From a virus (Duplodnaviria > Heunggongvirae > Uroviricota > Caudoviricetes): a stretch of DNA of 41,741 nt. The notes beneath the pieces were generated by a model that worked only from the letters and a program-made list of their open reading frames with translations, was not told the DNA's origin and ran no database searches. The position numbers and the translations under genes are program-made. This document shows, one piece after another, positions 1-41,741 of this stretch (positions are counted from its first letter, which is position 1; each line of letters opens with the position of its first letter). Location: IMG/VR virus record IMGVR_UViG_3300045988_117301; one strand, written 5' to 3'.

Positions 1-151
1 TGCGGGAAAGCAGACGCAAGAAATAGCGGCAATGTCTGTCCGTCCAGTCGAGCATAGGAGCAATGCTAAACCGAGAACTCCCGTAAGCGCCAGTTTTCTC
101 AGGCATCGCGCTGGTTTGATTAGTTTTCTGTGTTTCAGGATTATCGTGCAT
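1..151 (-). CDS. dusA: tRNA-dihydrouridine synthase A, 5' portion (continues beyond window start); N-terminus supplied by prophage DNA
   Basis: Minus-strand frame from ATG at 151-149 (internal ATG at 106-104) reads [50 protein letters not shown] and stays open to position 1; [14 protein letters not shown] is the conserved DusA N-terminal motif. Confidence 0.7.
44..105. repeat. attL: left copy of imperfect direct repeat, 8-bp identical core TCGAGCAT at 48-55
   Basis: About 79% identity to 41683-41741 over roughly 57 bp; core tcgagcat identical at both ends. Confidence 0.7.
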
Positions 152-184
152 TTTTGAACATTTCAGGCTATTTTTCTCGCGTTA

Positions 185-219
185 GGTTCCCGCACAGGTT
201 CCCACGATTTATGGGAACC
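185..219. promoter_or_regulatory. GGTTCCC repeat cluster upstream of int (two direct copies 185-191 and 197-203, one inverted 213-219); candidate integrase arm-type sites or int promoter elements
   Basis: Exact heptamer repeats seen directly; similar GGTTCCC/GGCTCCC pair at 41626-41643 on the other att arm. Confidence 0.35.
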
Positions 220-239
220 CGAAATAACGAGGTCGTGTA

Positions 240-1337
240 ATGGCGTACTATAACATAGAGAAACGACTAAAATCCGATGGCACACCACGCTATCGCTGTA
301 ATGTGATTATCAAAGAAAAAGGTGTTATCACTTACAGGGAAAGCAAAACATTCCCTAAACATGCCCATGCCAAAACATGGGGTACACAGAAAGTGATGGA
401 ATTAGATCTATATGGCATTCCATCATCAAATGCAGTTGACGGACTTACAGTCCGTGACTTACTACACAAATATTTAAATGACCCAAATGCCGGAGGTAAA
501 GCAGGTCGTACTAAAAGATATGTGCTGGAACTGCTTATGGATAGTGACATCTCCGCGATCAAACTATCCGAACTGACAGAAAATGACGTAATTGAACATT
601 GTAGGCTAAGAAACAACGCTGGTGCAGGTCCAGCAACAGTCAGCCACGATGTTAGTTATCTTGGCAGTGTTCTGGATGCGGCCAAACCTGTATACGGAAT
701 TAATTACACATCAAACCCGGCGAAAAGTGCTCGTCCATATCTACTTAAACTTGGTTTGATTGGTAAATCAAACCGTCGTAATCGTAGACCGGCATCTGAT
801 GAACTGGACATGCTCATTGAAGGTCTTCAACAACGATCTACACATAAATGCTCAAAAATTCCGTTCGTTGATATCCTCAAATTTTCTGTGTGGTCCTGTA
901 TGCGAATCGGAGAAGTATGCCGGTTACGATGGGAAGATCTCGACCAGGAACAAAAATCTATACTCGTAAGAGACAGGAAAGATCCACGCAAAAAGGAAGG
1001 CAACCACATGAAAGTAGCCTTGCTTGGGGAAGCCTGGGATATCGTCCAACGACAGCCCCAAAAATCGGAATTCATTTTTCCATATAACAGCACTTCTGTT
1101 ACTGCGGGATTTCAGAGGGTAAGAAGCAAATTAGGTATTAAAGATCTGCGATACCATGATTTGCGTAGAGAAGGGGCAAGTCGCTTATTTGAGGCTGGTT
1201 TTAGTATTGAGGAAGTCGCCCAAGTTACAGGGCATCGTTCATTAAACGTGCTATGGCAGGTATATACCGAACTGTATCCGAAATCTTTACATAATCGTTT
1301 TGAAGAGCTCCAAAAGAGCAGAAATAAGACCTCTTGA
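240..1337 (+). CDS. int: Tyrosine recombinase/integrase (dusA-targeting phage integrase)
   Basis: 365-aa ORF with ATG at 240 and a Shine-Dalgarno GAGG upstream; C-terminal region with R..HxxR..Y-type motifs (HDLRREGASR, LYPKSL); adjacent to attL. Confidence 0.9.
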   Translation: MAYYNIEKRLKSDGTPRYRCNVIIKEKGVITYRESKTFPKHAHAKTWGTQKVMELDLYGIPSSNAVDGLTVRDLLHKYLNDPNAGGKAGRTKRYVLELLMDSDISAIKLSELTENDVIEHCRLRNNAGAGPATVSHDVSYLGSVLDAAKPVYGINYTSNPAKSARPYLLKLGLIGKSNRRNRRPASDELDMLIEGLQQRSTHKCSKIPFVDILKFSVWSCMRIGEVCRLRWEDLDQEQKSILVRDRKDPRKKEGNHMKVALLGEAWDIVQRQPQKSEFIFPYNSTSVTAGFQRVRSKLGIKDLRYHDLRREGASRLFEAGFSIEEVAQVTGHRSLNVLWQVYTELYPKSLHNRFEELQKSRNKTS

Positions 1338-34261: not shown

Positions 34262-34482
34262 GCTGCACCTCCGAGATGCTTCATGTTTTTTCCGGAGCAA
34301 AAGGCTATAAGCGGCATACTGATGCGGTAATTACGGCCCAGCGGTTCACAAATCACCTTCTGACATTCACGGTCAACCAGGCTGACACGTAGAACATGCC
34401 CTGCAGGCGTGGTGTACCACTGACCAGGACGAGGACAACGGAAAGTCTGATTGGTAAACCGTTTGAAAATATTCCGGATCAT
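34258..34482 (-). CDS. Hypothetical small protein (translationally coupled)
   Basis: 74-aa ORF whose start and stop both overlap neighbouring genes (ATGA overlaps). Confidence 0.4.
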   Translation of the reverse strand: MIRNIFKRFTNQTFRCPRPGQWYTTPAGHVLRVSLVDRECQKVICEPLGRNYRISMPLIAFCSGKNMKHLGGAA

Positions 34483-35630
34483 TTGCGCCCCCTTACCTCT
34501 GAAGGGTTCAGCGACAAATTTATGAGGCAGGCCAGTGCCGAAGCATCATTAATATAGTCATACAAGCTAACAGCCAGCGGAGATTCGGCTTTTGCCAACA
34601 TAGGATAAAGCTGCTGCAGCCAGACCTGATGAATTGATGAAATGTAGGAATAGAGAACGCTGGCGTTATGTGCAACGTCGCTCAGTACAGAGGGATTTGA
34701 AAGCTGTTTCTCCATCTGGTTAAAGGCATTGATGTATGCCTCTTTGAACTGGGCAGCACGTTTACCCGTGAACCCCATAGCAAGAAACGCAAAGCCGTCG
34801 CGGGTTATTTGATAGCAAGGTAGTTTGCGGCCTGTGCAATCGGTGTAATCACTCACCGAAAAATTGCGGGCAGTGAATGATGCAGAGCATTCAAGCGTGC
34901 GGATCTTTTTCAGTACATCGTCATGACGTTTGGAGAAGAAGTTGGCAACAGCCAGGGATGAAGTAACAGCCTGACCATCAACGATGGCAATTTCAGGTTG
35001 AGTGAGGGTTGGGATCGTAGCCATGATGGCAGCCTCTTTGGTGATTTTTAATAACTCACCACCAAGGCTTTCCACGACCTTATTGGTGGTGAGACGTACA
35101 GGGGTGGAAATACCGGTCACCAAAGAACCCGGCCCAACCGAAGTTGGCCCTGCACGCCCCACCATAATTTGGGCGTAATGCTGCTCATTACACAAAAAAA
35201 CCGCAAGAGCGCGGTTGTGCGCTTTGGTGAATTCCGGGTTTCCACGCCCGGCACCCGCTTTATAAGGTGCCTGAACAGTGTAACGTCCCGGAATGGCAGA
35301 ATCAATGTGCTGGTGGTCCTTCACACTCAACAAAATCATGCCTGAATTTCCACAAAGGACTAAAGCACTCATGCGGGTAGTCTTTGCGAAGATAGATAAC
35401 GCGCTGTGTTTCTGGCTCCCAACGAATAACATGGACATAAAGCCCTCTTCCGTCACGAAACCAGCGGTTAAGTTCCTGCACAACTCGCCCCCCACAGTCA
35501 GGTAAAGTTCTCTGTGGTTACTTACAGCCAGGTGATTTGGTAATCTGCATTCATACCGTAACAACAGGTGTTCAGCGACACTGACCACCAGCTGTTGCGA
35601 CAAACGGTTATTTGCCGTTAAACTGTTCAT
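34479..35630 (-). CDS. Rha-family regulatory protein with a 200-aa in-frame N-terminal extension of unknown function
   Basis: ATG 35630 overlaps cII-like stop (ATGA); internal ATG 35027 with Shine-Dalgarno AAGAGG precedes the Rha-like part (MATIPTLTQPEIAIVDGQAVTSSLAVANFFSKRHDDVLKKIR...). Confidence 0.6.
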   Translation of the reverse strand: MNSLTANNRLSQQLVVSVAEHLLLRYECRLPNHLAVSNHRELYLTVGGELCRNLTAGFVTEEGFMSMLFVGSQKHSALSIFAKTTRMSALVLCGNSGMILLSVKDHQHIDSAIPGRYTVQAPYKAGAGRGNPEFTKAHNRALAVFLCNEQHYAQIMVGRAGPTSVGPGSLVTGISTPVRLTTNKVVESLGGELLKITKEAAIMATIPTLTQPEIAIVDGQAVTSSLAVANFFSKRHDDVLKKIRTLECSASFTARNFSVSDYTDCTGRKLPCYQITRDGFAFLAMGFTGKRAAQFKEAYINAFNQMEKQLSNPSVLSDVAHNASVLYSYISSIHQVWLQQLYPMLAKAESPLAVSLYDYINDASALACLINLSLNPSEVRGRK

Positions 35631-36445: not shown

Positions 36446-36522
36446 TTGCGTGATGAGCATATTATTTCACGCAAATATTTTGCGCAAGTTGATTTGCTTA
36501 ACGCGCAATAAAGAAATGTAAT
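36446..36522. promoter_or_regulatory. Immunity control region: operator sites TTGC-N7-GCAA (36446-36460, 36494-36508), palindrome CGCAAAtatTTTGCG (36469-36483), PR for cro and PRM for cI
   Basis: Minus strand -35 TTGCGC / 17 bp / -10 TAATAT upstream of cro; plus strand -35 TTGCTT (36494-36499) / 17 bp / -10 TGTAAT (36517-36522) ending a few nt before the cI ATG. Confidence 0.5.
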
Positions 36523-36528
36523 AAACGC

Positions 36529-37221
36529 ATGAACATAGGAAATCGAGTCAGACAACTTCGCCAGGCGAAGAACATGAAAATCGCCGATCTCGCTGAAGCA
36601 ATAGGAGTGGATGCGGCGAATATCTCGCGCCTCGAAACAGGTAAGCAGAAACAATTCACTGAACAAGCCCTGAGTAATATTGCCAGGAGCTTAGGTGTTG
36701 ATATTGCTGATCTCTTTACCTCAGACCTCAAAAGTAATACTGTATGTAAAAACAGTATTAGTGAGGATGTTGCGCAGGTGAAGGATGTATTCCGTATTGA
36801 AATGCTGGATGTCAGTGCCAGTGCGGGAAATGGCCTTATCCAGGGCGGTGATGTCATTGATGTGATTCATGCCATTGAATACAGAACTGATAATGCTGTA
36901 TCGATGTTTGGTGGACGACCAGCAAATCACATTAAAGTTATCAACGTTCGTGGGGACAGTATGTGTCCAACCATTGAGCCAGGAGATCTCATCTTCGTTG
37001 ATATCAGTATCAATCAGTTTGATGGGGATGGTATATATGTATTTGGTTTTGATGATAAAATTTACGTCAAACGACTGCAAATGATACCTGATAAACTGCT
37101 GGTAATTTCTGATAATCAGATTTACCGCGAATGGGGAATTACCAGCGAAAACGAACACCGGTTTATGGTCTTTGGAAAGGTCTTAATCAGTCAGTCACAG
37201 ACCCTTAAGCGACACAATTAA
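36529..37221 (+). CDS. cI: CI-type repressor (HTH_XRE N-terminus, S24 LexA-like autopeptidase C-terminus)
   Basis: 230 aa; N-terminal HTH (MKIADLAEAIGVDAANISRLETGKQ), C-terminal RGDSMCPTIEPGD Ser motif and downstream VKRL Lys; candidate Ala-Gly cleavage site in SASAGNG. Confidence 0.9.
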   Translation: MNIGNRVRQLRQAKNMKIADLAEAIGVDAANISRLETGKQKQFTEQALSNIARSLGVDIADLFTSDLKSNTVCKNSISEDVAQVKDVFRIEMLDVSASAGNGLIQGGDVIDVIHAIEYRTDNAVSMFGGRPANHIKVINVRGDSMCPTIEPGDLIFVDISINQFDGDGIYVFGFDDKIYVKRLQMIPDKLLVISDNQIYREWGITSENEHRFMVFGKVLISQSQTLKRHN

Positions 37222-37242: not shown

Positions 37243-37267
37243 AGCCACCAGAAGGTGGCTTTTCATT
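37243..37267 (+). terminator. Rho-independent terminator after cI
   Basis: Stem AGCCACC/GGTGGCT with loop agaa, followed by TTTCATT. Confidence 0.6.
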
Positions 37268-37277
37268 ACCCACCAAA

Positions 37278-37329
37278 TTGCTTATCTCGCAATAAAACAC
37301 TTGCATAATGCGCAACTTCATTTTATCTT
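37278..37329 (+). promoter_or_regulatory. OL/pL candidate: two operator sites TTGCTTATCTCGCAA (37278-37292) and TTGCATAATGCGCAA (37301-37315) with -35 TTGCAT and -10 TATCTT
   Basis: Same TTGC-N7-GCAA motif as in the cI-cro intergenic region; 17-bp promoter spacing; rightward toward the early-left genes. Confidence 0.4.
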
Positions 37330-37740
37330 TCTCTCCAGACCTACAAACAAGGTACTAACAAAATTTGGTTGTAACACGGCGTATGGCACATGCGTCGTTA
37401 GCGGTCTGGGGACGTTAAAGGGGACAATCCACTCCTTGCTCGGGCAAACAAACCAGGTAGCCGGAATGTGCAAGTCAATGAGGATGCTGATAAGACGCCT
37501 AACCAGCGTGGCGATCCGGTTTGACGCCTGGGAAGAGACCAGGGTGCAACGATGAGGGCATTTATGGAACCGCGACAAAGTGTGGTGCCGTAACTGGCTA
37601 AGTGCTCTCAGCGTTGTGGTAATCCGCGAAATGGCGCGGCGGTAAGTATGGCGGGGTTACTCTTTCCCCGTTGAGGACACCGGATTGTCAGGTTGACCAT
37701 ACGCCTGAGTGACAACCCCACCACAACAGCCACTGCTTTG

Positions 37741-37788
37741 GCGGTACCAGTTTGTACACTTGCTTCCGGCTGGTACCGCTCTTTTTAC
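37741..37788 (+). terminator. Strong hairpin plus T-run in the early-left leader (tL-like terminator)
   Basis: Perfect 10-bp stem GCGGTACCAG/CTGGTACCGC with 19-nt loop, followed by TCTTTTTAC. Confidence 0.45.
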
Positions 37789-37875
37789 AAAACAGAGAAG
37801 AGCATCACCGGACGACGGGCTCATAACCCAATCCATCCGGGCGGCTGCCACCGCAGGTGTTCTTCTCTGTTTTGT
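37787..37875 (+). other. Long imperfect inverted repeat (18-bp arms, 17/18 paired, 53-nt structured loop); candidate structured RNA or regulatory element
   Basis: ACAAAACAGAGAAGAGCA (37787-37804) pairs with TGTTCTTCTCTGTTTTGT (37858-37875); no ORF explains it. Confidence 0.3.
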
Positions 37876-37999
37876 GGAGAAACTAACCGCCCCTACGGGG
37901 GCATTTATGGAAATGTAATTGACTCAATAATCGCCGGACGGTGAGGGCTTCCTTTTACCCGAATTCAGCGCGGTGCAGCGCATATACGTGGAGAACAAA

Positions 38000-38536
38000 A
38001 TGTCATTTATTAAAACTTTTTCCGGGAAGCATTTTTATTATGACAGGATAAATAAAGACGACATCGTTATTAACGATATCGCGGTTTCCCTTTCAAATAT
38101 CTGTCGCTTTGCAGGACATCTTTCACACTTCTACAGTGTCGCCCAACATGCGGTGCTTTGCAGCCAGCTGGTGCCGCAGGAATTTGCTTTTGAAGCGTTA
38201 ATGCATGATGCAACAGAAGCGTATTGCCAGGACATCCCCGCACCACTGAAACGACTTCTTCCTGACTATAAACGGATGGAAGAAAAAATAGACGCCGTAA
38301 TACGTGAGAAATACGGGTTACCTCCTGTTATGAGCACGCCAGTGAAATATGCCGATCTCATTATGCTGGCAACCGAACGCCGCGATCTCGGGCTTGATGA
38401 TGGCTCTTTCTGGCCTGTACTGGAAGGTATCCCGGCAACAGAGATGTTCAAAGTTATTCCACTGTCGCCAGGCCATGCCTATGGGATGTTTATGGAACGT
38501 TTTAACGAGTTATCGGAGTTACGCAAATGCGCATGA
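38000..38536 (+). CDS. HD-domain phosphohydrolase (YfdR-like)
   Basis: HD motif (ALMHDATEAY); start ATG 38000 with Shine-Dalgarno GGAG (track start is GTG 37973). Confidence 0.8.
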   Translation: MSFIKTFSGKHFYYDRINKDDIVINDIAVSLSNICRFAGHLSHFYSVAQHAVLCSQLVPQEFAFEALMHDATEAYCQDIPAPLKRLLPDYKRMEEKIDAVIREKYGLPPVMSTPVKYADLIMLATERRDLGLDDGSFWPVLEGIPATEMFKVIPLSPGHAYGMFMERFNELSELRKCA

Positions 38537-38889
38537 ATGTTTTCGAAATGGAAGGGTTTCTTCGTGGGAGATGTGTACCGCGAGATCTGAAAGTAAATGA
38601 AACAGATGCTGAATACCTGGCGCGTAAATTCGATGCGCTTGAAGCTAAATGTGCAGCACAGGAAAACAAAGTAATACCAGTGTCAGCTGAACTGCCACCA
38701 GCAAATGAAAGTGTTTTGTTATTCGATGCTAACGGAGAAGGCTGGCTAATTGGCTGGCGTTCTCTCTGGTACACCTGGGAACAAAAAGAAACCGGAGAAT
38801 GGCAGTGGACATTTCAGGTCGGGGACCTTGAAAACGTCAATATCACTCACTGGGCAGTAATGCCAAAAGCACCGGAGGCTGGAGCATAA
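38527..38889 (+). CDS. DUF551-like phage protein (YfdS-like)
   Basis: 120 aa; C-terminal W-rich segment (GWRSLWYTWEQKETGEWQWTF...HWAVMP); stop overlaps next start (TAATG). Confidence 0.5.
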   Translation: MRMNVFEMEGFLRGRCVPRDLKVNETDAEYLARKFDALEAKCAAQENKVIPVSAELPPANESVLLFDANGEGWLIGWRSLWYTWEQKETGEWQWTFQVGDLENVNITHWAVMPKAPEAGA

Positions 38890-39698
38890 TGACCACATTT
38901 ACCGATAAAGAACTGATTAAAGAAATCAAAGAACGAATCAGCAGCATGGACGTGCGAGACAATGTTGAGCGCCGTGCTTATGAAATTGCTCTGGCATCGC
39001 TGGAAGAGGATCCGGTGGCATGGCTGCATTCAGACAATGGCTTAGGTATTCCGGCAATAACTAGGAGTAAAAACATTGCTGACAGTTGGTTATCAAAGGG
39101 CTGGTATGTTCAGCCGCTATATATAGCCAAGCCAGTGCCGGTGGTGCCAGATGCTCGTCCATCTTTAAATAATGGCATAGTCGGTTTTGATGAAGGCTGG
39201 AACGCCTGCCGAGCTGCCATGCTCTATGGTGCCGTACCTGCAAGCCAGGCTTACAAGTTGCCACAAACGCAGTTTAAACAGGTTGCTGACCTCTACGAAA
39301 TGCAATTTGATGACGGTCGCACTTGTACCTTTCACACTGATGCGCAAAAGGCTGTGCAATGGCTTCAGGCGTGCGACGGAAACAGGGTTCAGGAATACGT
39401 TAAGCTGGAACGATTGCAGAACGCACTGTCTGGCAACTCTCCGGTAACTCCGGATGGTTGGGTTATGGTGCCGAAGAGACTAACAGCCGAGAACGGCGCT
39501 AAGGGGGCGCTATCCGGTGAATTTTCAGAAACTACGTTTATAAGCTGCCTGGAATGCTTTGGCGATGATGATTGCGATACCTGTGACGGGAGCGGACGTA
39601 TTGAAATTAAAGTGCCAGTCACGTGGTCGACCATAAAATCTATCTGGGATAAAGGTATCGAGTATTTTGCAGCAAAACCATCACAAGAGGTGAAGTGA
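38889..39698 (+). CDS. Hypothetical protein with C-terminal DnaJ-type CxxCxGxG zinc-ribbon motif (YfdQ-like)
   Basis: 269 aa; CLECFGDDDCDTCDGSGRI near C-terminus. Confidence 0.5.
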   Translation: MTTFTDKELIKEIKERISSMDVRDNVERRAYEIALASLEEDPVAWLHSDNGLGIPAITRSKNIADSWLSKGWYVQPLYIAKPVPVVPDARPSLNNGIVGFDEGWNACRAAMLYGAVPASQAYKLPQTQFKQVADLYEMQFDDGRTCTFHTDAQKAVQWLQACDGNRVQEYVKLERLQNALSGNSPVTPDGWVMVPKRLTAENGAKGALSGEFSETTFISCLECFGDDDCDTCDGSGRIEIKVPVTWSTIKSIWDKGIEYFAAKPSQEVK

Positions 39699-40270
39699 TG
39701 AACAACTTAATGATCGACCTTGAGACGATGGGGAAAAATAAGGATGCACCGATCGTTTCCATTGGCGCGGTGTTCTTCACTCCAGAAACCGGAGACATCG
39801 GACAAGAATTCTATACGGTTGTTAGCCTGGACAGTGCTATGAAGCTAGGAGCTACACCTGACGGCGATACCATCCTGTGGTGGTTGAAACAAAGCCCTGA
39901 AGCACGAGCTGCAATCTGTATTGATGATACTTTGTCGATCAGCGATGCTCTCTCAGAACTAAATCATTTCATTAACCGGCACGCAGACAATACGAAATAT
40001 TTAAAAGTCTGGGGTAACGGAGCCACCTTCGACAACGTAATTTTACGTGGAGCTTATGAGCGAGCAGGACAAATCTGCCCGTGGGCATACTGGAATGACC
40101 ACGATGTACGCACGATCGTTACGCTTGGGCGTTCCATCGGATTCGACCCCAAAATGGACATGCCTTTCGATGGCGAACGGCACAACGCCCTAGCTGATGC
40201 CCGTCATCAGGCAAAATATGTTTCCGCTATCTGGCAGAAATTAATTCCTGCCACCAGCACAGAATTATGA
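39698..40270 (+). CDS. DEDDh-family 3'-5' exonuclease (DnaQ-like)
   Basis: MNNLMIDLETMG... (Exo I motif DxE), later acidic/His motifs (HNALADARH); Shine-Dalgarno AAGAGGTGA; start ATG 39698. Confidence 0.8.
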   Translation: MNNLMIDLETMGKNKDAPIVSIGAVFFTPETGDIGQEFYTVVSLDSAMKLGATPDGDTILWWLKQSPEARAAICIDDTLSISDALSELNHFINRHADNTKYLKVWGNGATFDNVILRGAYERAGQICPWAYWNDHDVRTIVTLGRSIGFDPKMDMPFDGERHNALADARHQAKYVSAIWQKLIPATSTEL

Positions 40271-40306
40271 TTTTCCCGGGTGCAGCCGGTTTTGATGGAG
40301 AAAATT

Positions 40307-40588
40307 ATGAACACCTTGTTTTTACTGATGGCTGAATTCAATACCCCAAACATTGAACTCTCAGCAGTTAGCCAAAAGTACTTTGGTATGAGTCCAGCCA
40401 CGGCAGAAGCAAAAGCAAACGCTTGTAAGTTGCCCGTTCCAACATATCGCATCGGCACATCACAAAAAGCAAAACGTTGCATCAATATTCAGGATCTTGC
40501 GGAATACATAGACAAAAGGCGAGAAGAAGGACGTATCGAGTGGGAACAGGTCAGAACAGTCAAACAGAAGGGCAAAGAACATCACTAA
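40307..40588 (+). CDS. PrtN-family / excisionase-like small DNA-binding protein
   Basis: MNTLFLLMAEFNTPNIELSAVSQKYFGMSPATAEAKANACKLPVPTYRIG... resembles PrtN-family proteins as recalled; last gene of the early-left operon; Shine-Dalgarno GGAG. Confidence 0.5.
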   Translation: MNTLFLLMAEFNTPNIELSAVSQKYFGMSPATAEAKANACKLPVPTYRIGTSQKAKRCINIQDLAEYIDKRREEGRIEWEQVRTVKQKGKEHH

Positions 40589-40589
40589 A

Positions 40590-40618
40590 GAAAAAACCCG
40601 CCTGAAGGCGGGTTTTCA
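40590..40618. terminator. Bidirectional rho-independent terminator
   Basis: Stem AACCCGCC/GGCGGGTT with loop tgaa, flanked by an A-run upstream and a T-run downstream; between convergent genes. Confidence 0.7.
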
Positions 40619-40635: not shown

Positions 40636-40809
40636 TCATGCTGCTTTGCGACGACGAAGCTTACCCTGCTGCTCTTTACCAGAGACAGTAGCGTGAGTGA
40701 ACGCATTAGGAGCAGCCTTCATCAGAACTTCAACAGCAGCACCCATACCTGCGAATGCTTTCATTGTGTCGAACTTAACCTGTGGCTTGGTTGCTTTTTG
40801 ATCTTTCAT
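40636..40809 (-). CDS. Hypothetical 57-aa basic protein (below the ORF-track size cutoff)
   Basis: ATG 40809 with Shine-Dalgarno GGGAG 6 nt upstream; translates MKDQKATKPQVKFDTMKAFAGMGAAVEVLMKAAPNAFTHATVSGKEQQGKLRRRKAA; ends at the bidirectional terminator. Confidence 0.45.
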   Translation of the reverse strand: MKDQKATKPQVKFDTMKAFAGMGAAVEVLMKAAPNAFTHATVSGKEQQGKLRRRKAA

Positions 40810-41005
40810 AGAAAACTCCCGAGACAGTAAAGGCGTCTCTAACCCTTTCTTTAAAGCTAGCTTGTTTCGCTAACTTATGCCAATCGATCATGTCGATTGG
40901 TGACATCGTTTCTTAGTAGTTTAAGCACAAAACGACTGCCATAGATGTACCTTTAAGGTAATCTGGACGGGTATCCTACAATTTGTAGACCCTTCTCGTC
41001 TATAC

Positions 41006-41539
41006 CTACTGAGCAAATTTAAGAAAGATATCCTGCAGCTCATCAATGACTGCCGACATCACATAACCGCACTGTTCCATGCGGAAACCAAAAGACTCGT
41101 AATACTGCACCAGTTCTGGTACTGGCTCTACAATGTGGACAACTTTACATTCAACAGCTTTACAAAATATAAAAGCACTCATAAGAGTGAGTAAAACCAT
41201 GCGCCCTTTCAATGGGTGAGATTCATCTTCTCTAGAAAACCTTTCGATCATATGGATACGAAAGATGTTTTCTTCAACCCCATAAACACAAATTGCTGCT
41301 CCTGATGGTATTCCCTGAACCCGACCTTGCTGAACAAGTTTTATGCAGAACTCATACTTTTCTCTGGAGTTGCCATAGGTACTTAACGCATAGTCCCATT
41401 CAAGCTCACCATAGCCACCACACAGAATCTTGTAATCATCATCACTGAGCGGACCAACAGCAAGAGGTAAGCCGACATGATCAATAATCAACTGGATATT
41501 GTTACGTACTGATTGACCTATCTCGTCCAGGGTAAGCAT
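41006..41539 (-). CDS. Hypothetical 177-aa protein, AT-rich cargo gene; possibly a divergent GNAT-like fold
   Basis: About 40% GC versus about 52% in phage core genes; C-terminal ...VHIVEPVPELVQYYESFGF resembles the GNAT motif B ending (Y..GF) but no clear acetyl-CoA Q/RxxGxG motif; Shine-Dalgarno GAGAGG. Confidence 0.55.
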   Translation of the reverse strand: MLTLDEIGQSVRNNIQLIIDHVGLPLAVGPLSDDDYKILCGGYGELEWDYALSTYGNSREKYEFCIKLVQQGRVQGIPSGAAICVYGVEENIFRIHMIERFSREDESHPLKGRMVLLTLMSAFIFCKAVECKVVHIVEPVPELVQYYESFGFRMEQCGYVMSAVIDELQDIFLKFAQ

Positions 41540-41667
41540 CATGGCCTCTCAAGCGGAACACTAAAAGTCGCATTATATCTCATTCTTAAGCCGCGTATGG
41601 ATTACACCTTGAAATGAAAACGCCGGGTTCCCAATAGGCTCCCGCAAAGTATATAACTACTTGTTTT

Positions 41668-41741
41668 TCAAAAACGGTACATCCTATCGAGCATTGGTGC
41701 AACGCTAAACCGACCACTCCAGTGAACGTCAGTTTTTTCAG
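41668..41741 (-). pseudogene. dusA: Displaced native 5' fragment of dusA (enters from beyond the window end, terminates in phage DNA)
   Basis: Minus strand reads ...EKTDVHWSGRFSVAPMLD then RMYRF and stop (TGA at 41670-41668); FSVAPMLD is the native DusA N-terminal motif, interrupted at the att core. Confidence 0.6.
41683..41741. repeat. attR: right copy of imperfect direct repeat, core TCGAGCAT at 41687-41694
   Basis: Aligns to 44-105 at about 79% identity; identical 8-bp core. Confidence 0.7.

Follow-up and report, generated by a model that had tools for sequence, protein, structure and literature searches.

A widely shared early-left operon of an Escherichia coli dusA lambdoid prophage, with a probable RdfN excisionase as its last gene

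In phage lambda, recombination and host-takeover genes are found to the left of the repressor gene, and the question raised by the virus record IMGVR_UViG_3300045988_117301 is what takes their place. The window, i.e., the whole stretch of DNA that was analysed (41,741 nucleotides), carries there a set of five genes. In the original prediction, made from the letters alone, their products were read as an HD-domain phosphohydrolase, a DUF551-like protein, a 269-aa protein with a zinc ribbon, a DnaQ-like 3′-5′ exonuclease, and a small PrtN/excisionase-like protein. All five domain identifications were borne out, that of the zinc ribbon as a motif in the sequence and the others by profile searches, as was the leftward, repressor-proximal position of a set devoid of exo/bet/gam or any other annealase. 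The likely answer is that these genes make up an accessory operon on the early-left side of an E. coli dusA lambdoid prophage, and that this operon is under repressor control and includes YfdR, a DexA-family exonuclease, and a terminal RdfN excisionase. The module is already known: accessory operons of this ordinary kind are widespread among E. coli dusA lambdoid prophages.

The window is a complete E. coli lambdoid prophage whose insertion site is the 5′ end of dusA (Table 1). The dusA reading frame is restored at the insertion and the integrase is of the DusA-associated kind, so that the element shows the marks of dusA-specific elements; the annotation of Z30 and SKA5 likewise shows a partial dusA at the matching place. 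The integrase is 99-100% identical to those of PhiR40_1, mEp460, and SKA5. GGYTCCC occurs twice near attR, at 41626 and 41637, where the repeats may serve as arm-type sites, and the same repeat is found near attL at 185, 197, and 213 (inverted). Convergent rdfN and minus-strand cargo genes are separated by a hairpin whose plus-strand stem is followed by four T and which, judged from this sequence, may act in both directions.

Table 1. Features of the prophage ends, the control region, and the early-left operon
Feature	Position	Strand	Evidence or remark
attL core TCGAGCAT	48-55		in hybrid dusA 5′ end, first codons phage-derived; window-end alignment, translation
attL and integrase region	48..1337	+	
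int, DusA-type tyrosine integrase	240-1337	+	phrog_1/25190; adjoins attL
cI-type repressor (HTH and S24 peptidase)	36529..37221	+	PF00717 5.9e-19, HTH families, phrog_4
Candidate leftward promoter/operator (pL/oL)	37275..37330	+	repeat families D2, D9, I4
Untranslated leader, about 670 nt, no convincing ORF	37331..37999	+	ORF list
yfdR, HD-domain 5′-deoxynucleotidase	38000..38536	+	98% to K-12 YfdR; phrog_318 3e-111
yfdS, DUF551 protein	38527..38889	+	95% to K-12 YfdS; phrog_583 5e-81
269-aa mosaic protein	38889..39698	+	phrog_60; alignment-based modules
DEDDh 3′-5′ exonuclease, Rv2179c-like/T4 DexA family, 190 aa	39698..40270	+	PF16473 3e-75
rdfN, PrtN-domain recombination directionality factor (predicted excisionase), 93 aa	40307..40588	+	PF11112, phrog_1300
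Hairpin between convergent rdfN and minus-strand cargo genes	40592..40617	called on − only	terminator scan, 11-bp stem
attR region	41626..41694		
attR core TCGAGCAT	41687-41694		in displaced native dusA 5′ fragment; window-end alignment, translation EKTDVHWSGRFSVAPMLD

The five plus-strand ORFs are real and tightly packed in 38000-40588. The family start of yfdR is the ATG at 38000, the mechanically called ORF opening at a GTG at 37973 with its end at 38536. The last gene may be read from a GTG at 40280 (102 aa) or from an ATG at 40307 (93 aa), and the latter is taken as the start because the family N-terminus MNT.FLLMAE is invariant. The junction of yfdR and yfdS is a 10-nt overlap, yfdS and the gene of the 269-aa protein share ATGA, and the latter and the exonuclease gene share TGATG; between the exonuclease gene and the last gene lie 36 nt, in which there is a GGAG Shine-Dalgarno sequence. 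These junctions therefore indicate that the first four genes are translationally coupled, as had been proposed for the whole set, whereas the fifth is only closely spaced.

The same DNA (about 98% identity) is present in 84 complete E. coli genomes, namely, Z30 and 83 others, and also in SKA5 and mEp460; parts of the operon DNA occur in 3471 of 5426 genomes. In SKA5 (OR670062) the match covers all 2.8 kb, at 98.6%. Both mEp460 and SKA5 are cultivable phages.

A cI-type repressor gene lies directly upstream of the operon on the same strand, and beyond its end the terminator scan placed a hairpin terminator at 37243-37260. Just past this terminator, TTGC-N7-GCAA palindromes occupy 37278-37292 and 37301-37315 and match a third copy between cI and cro (36494-36508); this pattern occurs six times against 1.6 expected, and three of the six matches are in the immunity region. 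Such operator-like palindromes point to a repressor-controlled leftward promoter, for which a possible −35 TTGCAT with a −10 TATCTT may be proposed. Three hairpins are found in the leader between this putative promoter and yfdR: one that resembles a terminator and has a T-run (37741-37785), a long one of about 100 nt (37782-37880), and a GC hairpin (37889-37901). The leader folds at −102.6 kcal/mol (z = −5.9), matched no family in an Rfam search, and holds no plus-strand promoter above chance in a promoter scan. A yfdP-yfdQ cassette, carried by mEp460 and Z30 and missing from the window, is inserted after the long leader hairpin (alignments with Z30, mEp460, ST64B, and LLS) and constitutes a simple presence/absence difference in a three-way alignment. 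ST64B and LLS conserve the position, but not the sequence, of the terminator-like hairpin between the candidate promoter and yfdR. No N-like antiterminator was recognised that would account for read-through past this hairpin; this and the outcome of the promoter scan speak against the proposed control.

The first two genes are close relatives of K-12 genes. YfdR is identical to its K-12 counterpart at 174 of 178 residues (98%), keeps an intact HD dyad at residues 69-70, aligns with PDB 2GZ4 (2e-13), and scores 24.2 bits against PF12917 (YfbR-like), just short of the 25.9 cut-off. YfdS passes PF04448 marginally (22.5 bits versus a gathering cut-off of 22), and its PDB matches are chance-level RNase H hits only. 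YfdR is a reported DnaA-binding protein; its near-identical K-12 counterpart binds DnaA domain I (PMC4776307). In the same study, initiation at oriC was inhibited on overexpression of yfdQ and yfdR together with yfdS or yfdT; a low nucleotide affinity is attributed to YfdR in work cited there. No tblastn match to yfdQ or yfdP was found in the window, which thus lacks the gene set that inhibits initiation. The proposed likeness to yfdQ/R/S/T of a cryptic prophage accordingly stands for yfdR (98%) and yfdS (95%) and for the first 42 residues of yfdT, and fails for yfdQ, which is absent together with yfdP.

The third protein is a mosaic. Alignment divides it into a YfdT-like part (residues 1-44), a variable part (45-104), a conserved part (105-190), and a putative C-terminal zinc knuckle (191-269). 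The identity to YfdT reaches 81% and extends over 42 aa only. The zinc motif consists of C220-x2-C223 and C229-x2-C232-x-G-x-G (CLEC, CDTCDGSG), and homologues have a DUF551 domain where this module stands. Neither the whole protein nor its segments matched a Pfam family, no zinc-finger model being found even at E up to 10, and segment searches of Pfam and PHROG returned no annotated family. An AlphaFold2 model from a 20-sequence alignment had a pLDDT of 44, too poor to judge a DnaJ-type CxxCxGxG zinc finger or to run a fold search. The label “Ea22” in some phage records is not backed by sequence; BLASTP against lambda Ea22 gave no alignment better than E 2.8. YfdS and the 269-aa protein are accessory proteins that probably act on host physiology.

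A broader proposal is that YfdR, the DexA-like exonuclease, and the DUF551 and zinc-knuckle proteins form a joint host-takeover or counter-defence module, gated by the leader as a new cis-regulatory RNA. We regard this as unlikely. During induction such a module, if real, would shut off the initiation of host replication and clear away species of DNA or oligonucleotides, among them possible immune signals.

The fourth protein matches PF16473 over its full length (1-177/177) and retains all five DEDDh catalytic residues (D7, E9, D112, H162, and D167). It is 28% identical to T4 DexA (E 7e-17; PDB 8KEL 5e-11). Like T4 DexA and M. tuberculosis Rv2179c it has the DEDDh residues, and of the DexA residues S87, D90, and W152 are kept as S80, D83, and W132; it differs from DexA in being 37 residues shorter, in lacking the DexA surface loops, and in having Ser146 where DexA has D169. 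The enzyme would most likely trim 3′ ends of single-stranded DNA or oligonucleotides in lytic growth. NCBIfam added nothing useful for any of the five proteins. Two other candidates were put aside. The ISG20-like TONDO exonucleases (PMC13344964) belong to another DEDDh branch, chosen by ISG20 similarity, and have no link to PF16473; K-12 ypdJ was rejected as an exonuclease remnant.

It has been reported that a plasmid-borne E. coli DexA homologue, EcD (HAK9828821.1), protects against T4 (the “HREX” strategy; PMC12153337). The exonuclease, perhaps with its neighbours, could in the same way be a prophage-borne defence gene, degrading T4-like hydroxymethylcytosine DNA and protecting the lysogen. 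Membership of the DexA family, with the catalytic residues and the W152 equivalent kept, agrees with this, as does a weak PADLOC match to a CRISPR-associated DEDDh model (2.7e-5), the only defence assignment that PADLOC made. However, HREX/EcD-type enzymes are recognised in that study by the loss of DexA D90 with W152 and D169 kept; here, the tetramer residues S87 and D90 are retained, and the 5hmC-recognising D169 is lost. Moreover, the gene is part of the operon for which repressor control is predicted, and no promoter for it alone scored above chance; it should thus be silent in a lysogen. The family is found in 594 phage records of many kinds and is common in virulent phages. A defence role is therefore quite improbable.

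The chemistry of YfdR and the exonuclease is mutually compatible, as DexA-type enzymes yield 5′-mononucleotides and YfdR is annotated as a 5′-deoxynucleotidase, and the two genes stand at the two operon ends in both E. coli and Yersinia phage YeP1. One might imagine them acting jointly on nucleotide pools or small signalling nucleotides, the exonuclease releasing mononucleotides or linearising and trimming oligonucleotide signals and the HD enzyme dephosphorylating them, in host takeover or counter-defence. Yet the two genes are not generally linked: most relatives (Stx2c phages, cdtI, 2H10, and K-12 CPS-53) have yfdR-yfdS and lack this exonuclease, and the exonuclease family is, as noted, spread over phages of many kinds. 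Apart from the weak DEDDh hit, no known defence or anti-defence family was matched in PADLOC, and dNMP dephosphorylation would oppose phage DNA synthesis. A joint action is very unlikely; the earlier suggestion that these enzymes act on signalling nucleotides found no evidence in its favour.

The product of the last gene scores 81.7 bits (4.2e-23) with PF11112 (PyocinActivator), whose cut-off is 24.2, and matches phrog_1300 “excisionase” at 8e-40. RdfN-type proteins are small, of about 76-100 aa, so that both size and domain fit this type. It is 61% identical to the 76-aa V. cholerae RdfN-type protein P0220, whose island adjoins a FUR-family gene and has Gabija-like and MpsA-type (PF12835) genes. 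PrtN-domain RdfN has been established by experiment as the recombination directionality factor of dusA-specific integrases: deletion of rdfN abolishes excision, and Int and RdfN suffice for it, as shown for IMEVchUSA3 only (Durand et al. 2021, PMC8409611). A survey of 94 dusA islands found prtN in 60 of them (PMC4482086). In phage records, the RdfN-like protein (n = 105) and the integrase type of the window (n = 124) share most of the listed accessions, with similar counts by genus (Vibrio 34/34, Yersinia 3/3, Pseudoalteromonas 5/5, and Escherichia 9/8); RdfN is thus co-inherited with the dusA integrase type across unrelated element backbones. Structure adds little, the best PDB match by sequence or profile being SlyA at E 1.2 and a single-sequence AlphaFold2 model having a pLDDT of 47, too poor for a fold search. 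The RdfN family, the V. cholerae relative, the dusA insertion, and the co-occurrence with the integrase support the view that the last gene is the excisionase. Most records label rdfN “pyocin activator” or “hypothetical,” and RefSeq calls the mEp460 homologue “excisionase.”

As both the family name and the Pfam model go back to PrtN, the pyocin activator, the protein might instead activate transcription of late or lysis genes, as PrtN does for Pseudomonas pyocin genes, and take no part in excision; the role of prtN in dusA islands was left open in PMC4482086. This is highly improbable. For its late genes the phage possesses a Q-like antiterminator; the protein accompanies the integrase type on unrelated phage backbones, including Vibrio elements of 13-15 kb; its gene adjoins attP in YeP1; and its 61%-identical relative is of the type sufficient with Int for excision.

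The place of the exonuclease gene in the early-left operon, the name “exodeoxyribonuclease VIII” in some phage records, and RusA elsewhere in the genome could suggest a recombination nuclease standing in for lambda Exo in the Red slot, but there is little chance of this, since DEDDh enzymes degrade 3′-5′ while Red/RecET-type recombination needs 5′-3′ resection, the window nowhere codes for an annealase such as Bet, RecT, Erf, or Sak, and the “Exo VIII” label has no family match here in Pfam or PHROG. Among the early genes of the window, PHROG and Pfam gave no match to Red exo/bet/gam, Erf, RecT, or Sak, the other matches being RusA, an O-like initiator, methyltransferases, and a Q-like protein only.

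The reading as a repressor-controlled accessory operon with RdfN at its end builds on gene identities, synteny, dusA att sites, and RdfN/Int co-occurrence observed here; the promoter, the operon read-through, and all biochemical activities in this phage are predictions. In the lysogen, the S24-type cI repressor would shut the leftward promoter (about 37275-37330). Upon loss of the repressor, transcription would run through the long structured leader into the five genes. RdfN would then bind the att arms and turn the DusA-type integrase, presumably expressed from its own promoter at the far prophage end, from integration to excision. With rdfN last in the induced operon, excision would be coupled to induction, comparably to xis on the lambda pL transcript and torI in KplE1.

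The result mainly tidies annotation by giving the correct starts of yfdR and rdfN and by showing that the “Ea22” and “exodeoxyribonuclease VIII” labels of related phage records are unsupported by sequence. In addition, E. coli dusA prophages of this very frequent class now have an assigned excisionase.

The closest known systems are mEp460 (NC_019716), SKA5, PhiR40_1/PhiR47_1/PhiR55_1, and Z30, whose integrases are 98.6-100% identical to that of the window. Their RdfN homologues are 85-98% identical (mEp460 97%, PhiR40_1/PhiR55_1 85%), and the exonuclease is 98-100% identical in mEp460 and PhiR40_1. mEp460 differs in its other middle genes (ead/Ea22-like and a 251-aa DUF551 protein), and SKA5 has a Mu-like tail module instead of the lambda-like one of the window. 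In Yersinia phage YeP1 the synteny is conserved as HD gene (58%), variable genes, exonuclease (65%), rdfN (55%), attP, and int (68%).

The right end of K-12 CPS-53/KplE1, yfdP-yfdQ-yfdR-yfdS-yfdT-(ypdJ)-torI-attR, has the same order and strand logic, with the directionality factor gene last before attR and the integrase at the far prophage end (PMC2951348). The separation of the excisionase from int, which had been pointed out beforehand, is not unusual, being the normal layout in dusA elements and in KplE1 (torI/intS). YfdT resembles the 269-aa protein over its first 42 residues and has the ...QEVK-stop/start junction in common with it. Compared with CPS-53, the window lacks yfdP and yfdQ, has a third gene of 269 aa with a zinc knuckle in place of the 101-aa YfdT, and adds the DexA-family exonuclease; its PrtN-type factor has no similarity to TorI and pairs with a dusA integrase, not with the argW integrase IntS.

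The early-left operon of lambda (N ... gam-bet-exo ... ea22 ... xis-int) is similar in running leftward beside the repressor gene and in combining accessory genes with a distal excision factor. Conversely, the window has no N, cIII, kil, gam, bet, or exo, and int is off that transcript, across attP. RdfN of IMEVchUSA3 is, like that of the window, a small PF11112 protein encoded far from int near attR, and its element too occupies the 5′ end of dusA and restores the frame. The RdfN of the window, a predicted excisionase, differs from that type in its 93 aa with a basic C-terminal extension, and its gene belongs to an early operon of a tailed phage, where control presumably lies with a cI-type repressor and not with an AcaCD-responsive promoter.

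The operon of yfdR, yfdS, the 269-aa gene, the exonuclease gene and rdfN is a common, already catalogued prophage module: its genes belong to described families and are widespread in E. coli. The original prediction described the region accurately. A mechanical ORF listing gives five consecutive plus-strand frames at 37973-40588, of 187, 120, 269, 191 and 102 codons. The start of yfdR is set at the ATG at 38000, which is also where the original prediction begins, because the alignment with K-12 YfdR begins at residue 10 of the mechanical ORF. For rdfN the invariant N-terminal motif of its family, MNT.FLLMAE, places the start at the ATG at 40307. These frames and their junctions (see table) confirm the proposed translational coupling, the overlaps linking the first four genes. 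Identical copies of all five proteins are found in public data, from 21 contigs for YfdS to at least 1000. Of 5426 complete E. coli genomes, 84 cover 80% or more of the 2.8-kb region (97.7-98.5% identity among the best matches listed) and 3471 match some part of it; in phage SKA5 the entire region is present, with 98.6% identity.

Features of the window outside and between the five operon genes
Feature	Coordinates	Strand	Remark
DusA N-terminus (left end)	1-106	minus	
Core, both ends	48-55 and 41687-41694		
GGYTCCC repeats, left	185, 197, 213 (span 185-219)		beside int/attL; one of three inverted
Tyrosine integrase	240-1337		
264-aa ORF	1888-2682	plus	a little past int; low-GC stretch (0.44-0.47)
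Mechanical Rha/Ash ORF	34479-35630		383 codons
C4 and isrK matches	35082-35270	minus	
S24/HTH cI gene	36529-37221		upstream of operon; terminator after it
Leader	37331-37999		about 670 nt, candidate promoter to yfdR
Leader hairpin 1	37741-37785		terminator-like, with T-run
Leader hairpin 2	37782-37880		long, about 100 nt
Leader hairpin 3	37889-37901		GC hairpin
yfdR/yfdS junction			overlap, 10 nt
yfdS/269-aa gene junction			overlap ATGA
269-aa gene/exonuclease gene junction			overlap TGATG
Exonuclease gene/rdfN junction			spacer, 36 nt with GGAG
57-aa cargo protein, phrog_2741	within 40636-41542	minus	
178-aa cargo protein, phrog_4350	within 40636-41542	minus	
GGYTCCC repeats, right	41626, 41637 (span 41626-41643)		beside attR
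Native dusA fragment (right end)	41680-41741		

The product of the first gene shares 174 of 178 residues with YfdR of the K-12 cryptic prophage CPS-53. It matches phrog_318 (“deoxyribonucleoside 5′ monophosphate phosphatase”, 3e-111), carries its HD dyad at residues 69-70 and has Atu1052 (2GZ4, 2e-13) as its closest solved structure. The second gene is yfdS (114 of 120 residues as in K-12), with a marginal DUF551 match. It has been reported that YfdR binds DnaA domain I (Noguchi and Katayama, PMC4776307), and its affinity for nucleotides is low according to work cited there (PMC4776307). The K-12 phenotype, inhibition of oriC initiation by overexpressed yfdQ and yfdR together with yfdS or yfdT, cannot simply be transferred to the present operon, since both yfdQ and yfdP are absent from the window. 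The suggested likeness to the yfdQ/R/S/T genes thus stands for yfdR and yfdS and fails for yfdQ; for yfdT it is confined to the first 42 residues (81% identity), the only part that the 269-aa protein has in common with YfdT.

In an alignment of 20 homologues, the 269-aa protein consists of four modules: the N-terminus is common to all, residues 45-104 vary, residues 105-190 are conserved, and the C-terminus is exchangeable. The last bears a zinc knuckle, C220-x2-C223 ... C229-x2-C232-x-G-x-G, whose place is taken by a DUF551 domain in many relatives. YfdT, the 269-aa protein and the DUF551-ended variants all close with QEVK-stop, encoded by CAAGAGGTGAAR (window 39680-39700; locus L003 10165-10185), which doubles as the Shine-Dalgarno sequence and start of the downstream gene. 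This site looks like a conserved joint for module exchange, and its overlap with the signals of the next gene is taken to account for the mosaicism of the protein. A Pfam search of the protein returned no family, no similarity to lambda Ea22 was found in it, and its predicted structure (pLDDT 44) was unusable.

The fourth gene product matches PF16473 (Rv2179c-like 3′-5′ exoribonuclease domain) over its full length (3e-75). Its closest solved relative is DexA of T4 (8KEL, 5e-11); identity with the T4 gene is 28% (E 7e-17), and every DEDDh residue is kept, as is DexA W152, here W132. DexA is reported to degrade host DNA and 5hmC DNA, and EcD, an E. coli homologue, to give protection against T4 (PMC12153337). 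An EcD-like enzyme was considered and rejected on the residues set out in that work (PMC12153337): S87 and D90, tetramer residues of DexA, persist as S80 and D83, and S146 stands opposite the 5hmC-recognising D169. Members of the exonuclease family are spread over 594 phage records of diverse types. What most related phages and K-12 have in common is limited to the leader, yfdR and yfdS, so the HD and exonuclease genes are not linked in general. The early regions of the window contain an O-like initiator, methyltransferases, RusA, a KilA-N-type regulator, an HNH/YdfU protein and a Q-like antiterminator. None of the Red, Erf, RecT or Sak functions is encoded there, in agreement with the claim that the operon slot does not hold lambda exo/bet/gam.

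Upstream of the operon, TTGC-N7-GCAA palindromes at 37278 and 37301 match one between cI and cro. The window contains six such palindromes against 1.6 expected, three of them in the immunity region, which supports a putative leftward promoter under repressor control at about 37275-37330. In the leader, no convincing ORF was found, Rfam gave no family, and fold stability is well beyond that of shuffled sequence (z = -5.9); an N-like antiterminator was not recognised. The long stem is kept over eight sequences, with four pairs changed on both sides and a few breaks; the T-run hairpin keeps its position in ST64B and LLS with a different stem sequence. In Z30, mEp460, ST64B and others, a yfdP-yfdQ cassette follows the long hairpin, and in the three named the small GC hairpin comes after yfdQ. 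By comparison with Z30, mEp460 and ST64B (locus L001, 6721-7973), the window is without this cassette, and its breakpoint, 37889, is at the GC hairpin. Of 5426 E. coli genomes, 4743 have pieces of this leader, as do SfII, SfV, mEp460, Stx2c phages and Salmonella ST64B. Based on only three diverged sequences, these features are suggestive of a terminator combined with an RNase III or regulatory site.

Rfam matches to C4 antisense RNA (83.6 bits) and isrK (67 bits) fall within the mechanical Rha/Ash ORF, at whose position the annotation of Z30, an E. coli strain with a dusA prophage, has a Rha protein and a DUF4222 protein. The actual gene is probably shorter, and a P1/P7 immI-like or IsrK-like RNA would precede it and control an anti-repressor.

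The window spans an entire prophage, integrated in dusA. Its left end encodes the DusA N-terminus with phage-derived first codons, its right end carries the displaced native dusA fragment (...EKTDVHWSGRFSVAPMLD), and the core TCGAGCAT is common to both. A matching arrangement has been described for DusA-associated integrases (PMC4482086). From the prophage dusA receives a new 5′ end, presumably together with a promoter, and the native 5′ fragment at attR is a leftover pseudogene. Five of the eight GGYTCCC copies in the window, a total not above expectation, lie beside the att sites and are candidate arm-type binding sites for Int or RdfN.

Between rdfN and attR, a typical moron position, there are two cargo genes. 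They occur in mEp460 and Z30, not in Yersinia phage YeP1, and their products found no match in Pfam, NCBIfam or PADLOC. The 264-aa ORF, without a match in PHROG and PADLOC, may be a further cargo gene.

The guess that the last gene is the excisionase is supported by its matches to PF11112 (PrtN, 4e-23) and phrog_1300 (“excisionase”, 8e-40), by 61% identity with a 76-aa PrtN-domain protein of V. cholerae and by co-occurrence with the integrase type; the mEp460 RefSeq record also labels its last operon gene “excisionase”. The name rdfN was given to the PrtN-domain ORF of dusA-specific elements (Durand et al., PMC8409611). Its deletion abolishes excision, and Int and RdfN are sufficient for mini-element excision in E. 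coli (PMC8409611). The island of the V. cholerae protein lies beside a FUR-family gene, with Gabija-like and MpsA-type genes. In the phage collection, an RdfN-like protein is found in 105 records and the integrase type in 124, with almost equal genus counts and most listed accessions common to both; lambda-like, Mu-tailed and 13-15 kb Vibrio elements are covered. From this co-occurrence, together with the gene orders of YeP1 and CPS-53, it follows that the directionality factor is swapped as a unit with the integrase and that separation of its gene from int is the usual layout of such elements. YeP1 has the order HD, variable genes, exonuclease, rdfN, attP, int, its proteins being 55-68% identical to those of the window, and its rdfN is followed by attP without cargo in between. 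In CPS-53, the corresponding place behind yfdT is taken by torI, a directionality factor gene unrelated to rdfN, and intS lies at the opposite end (PMC2951348).
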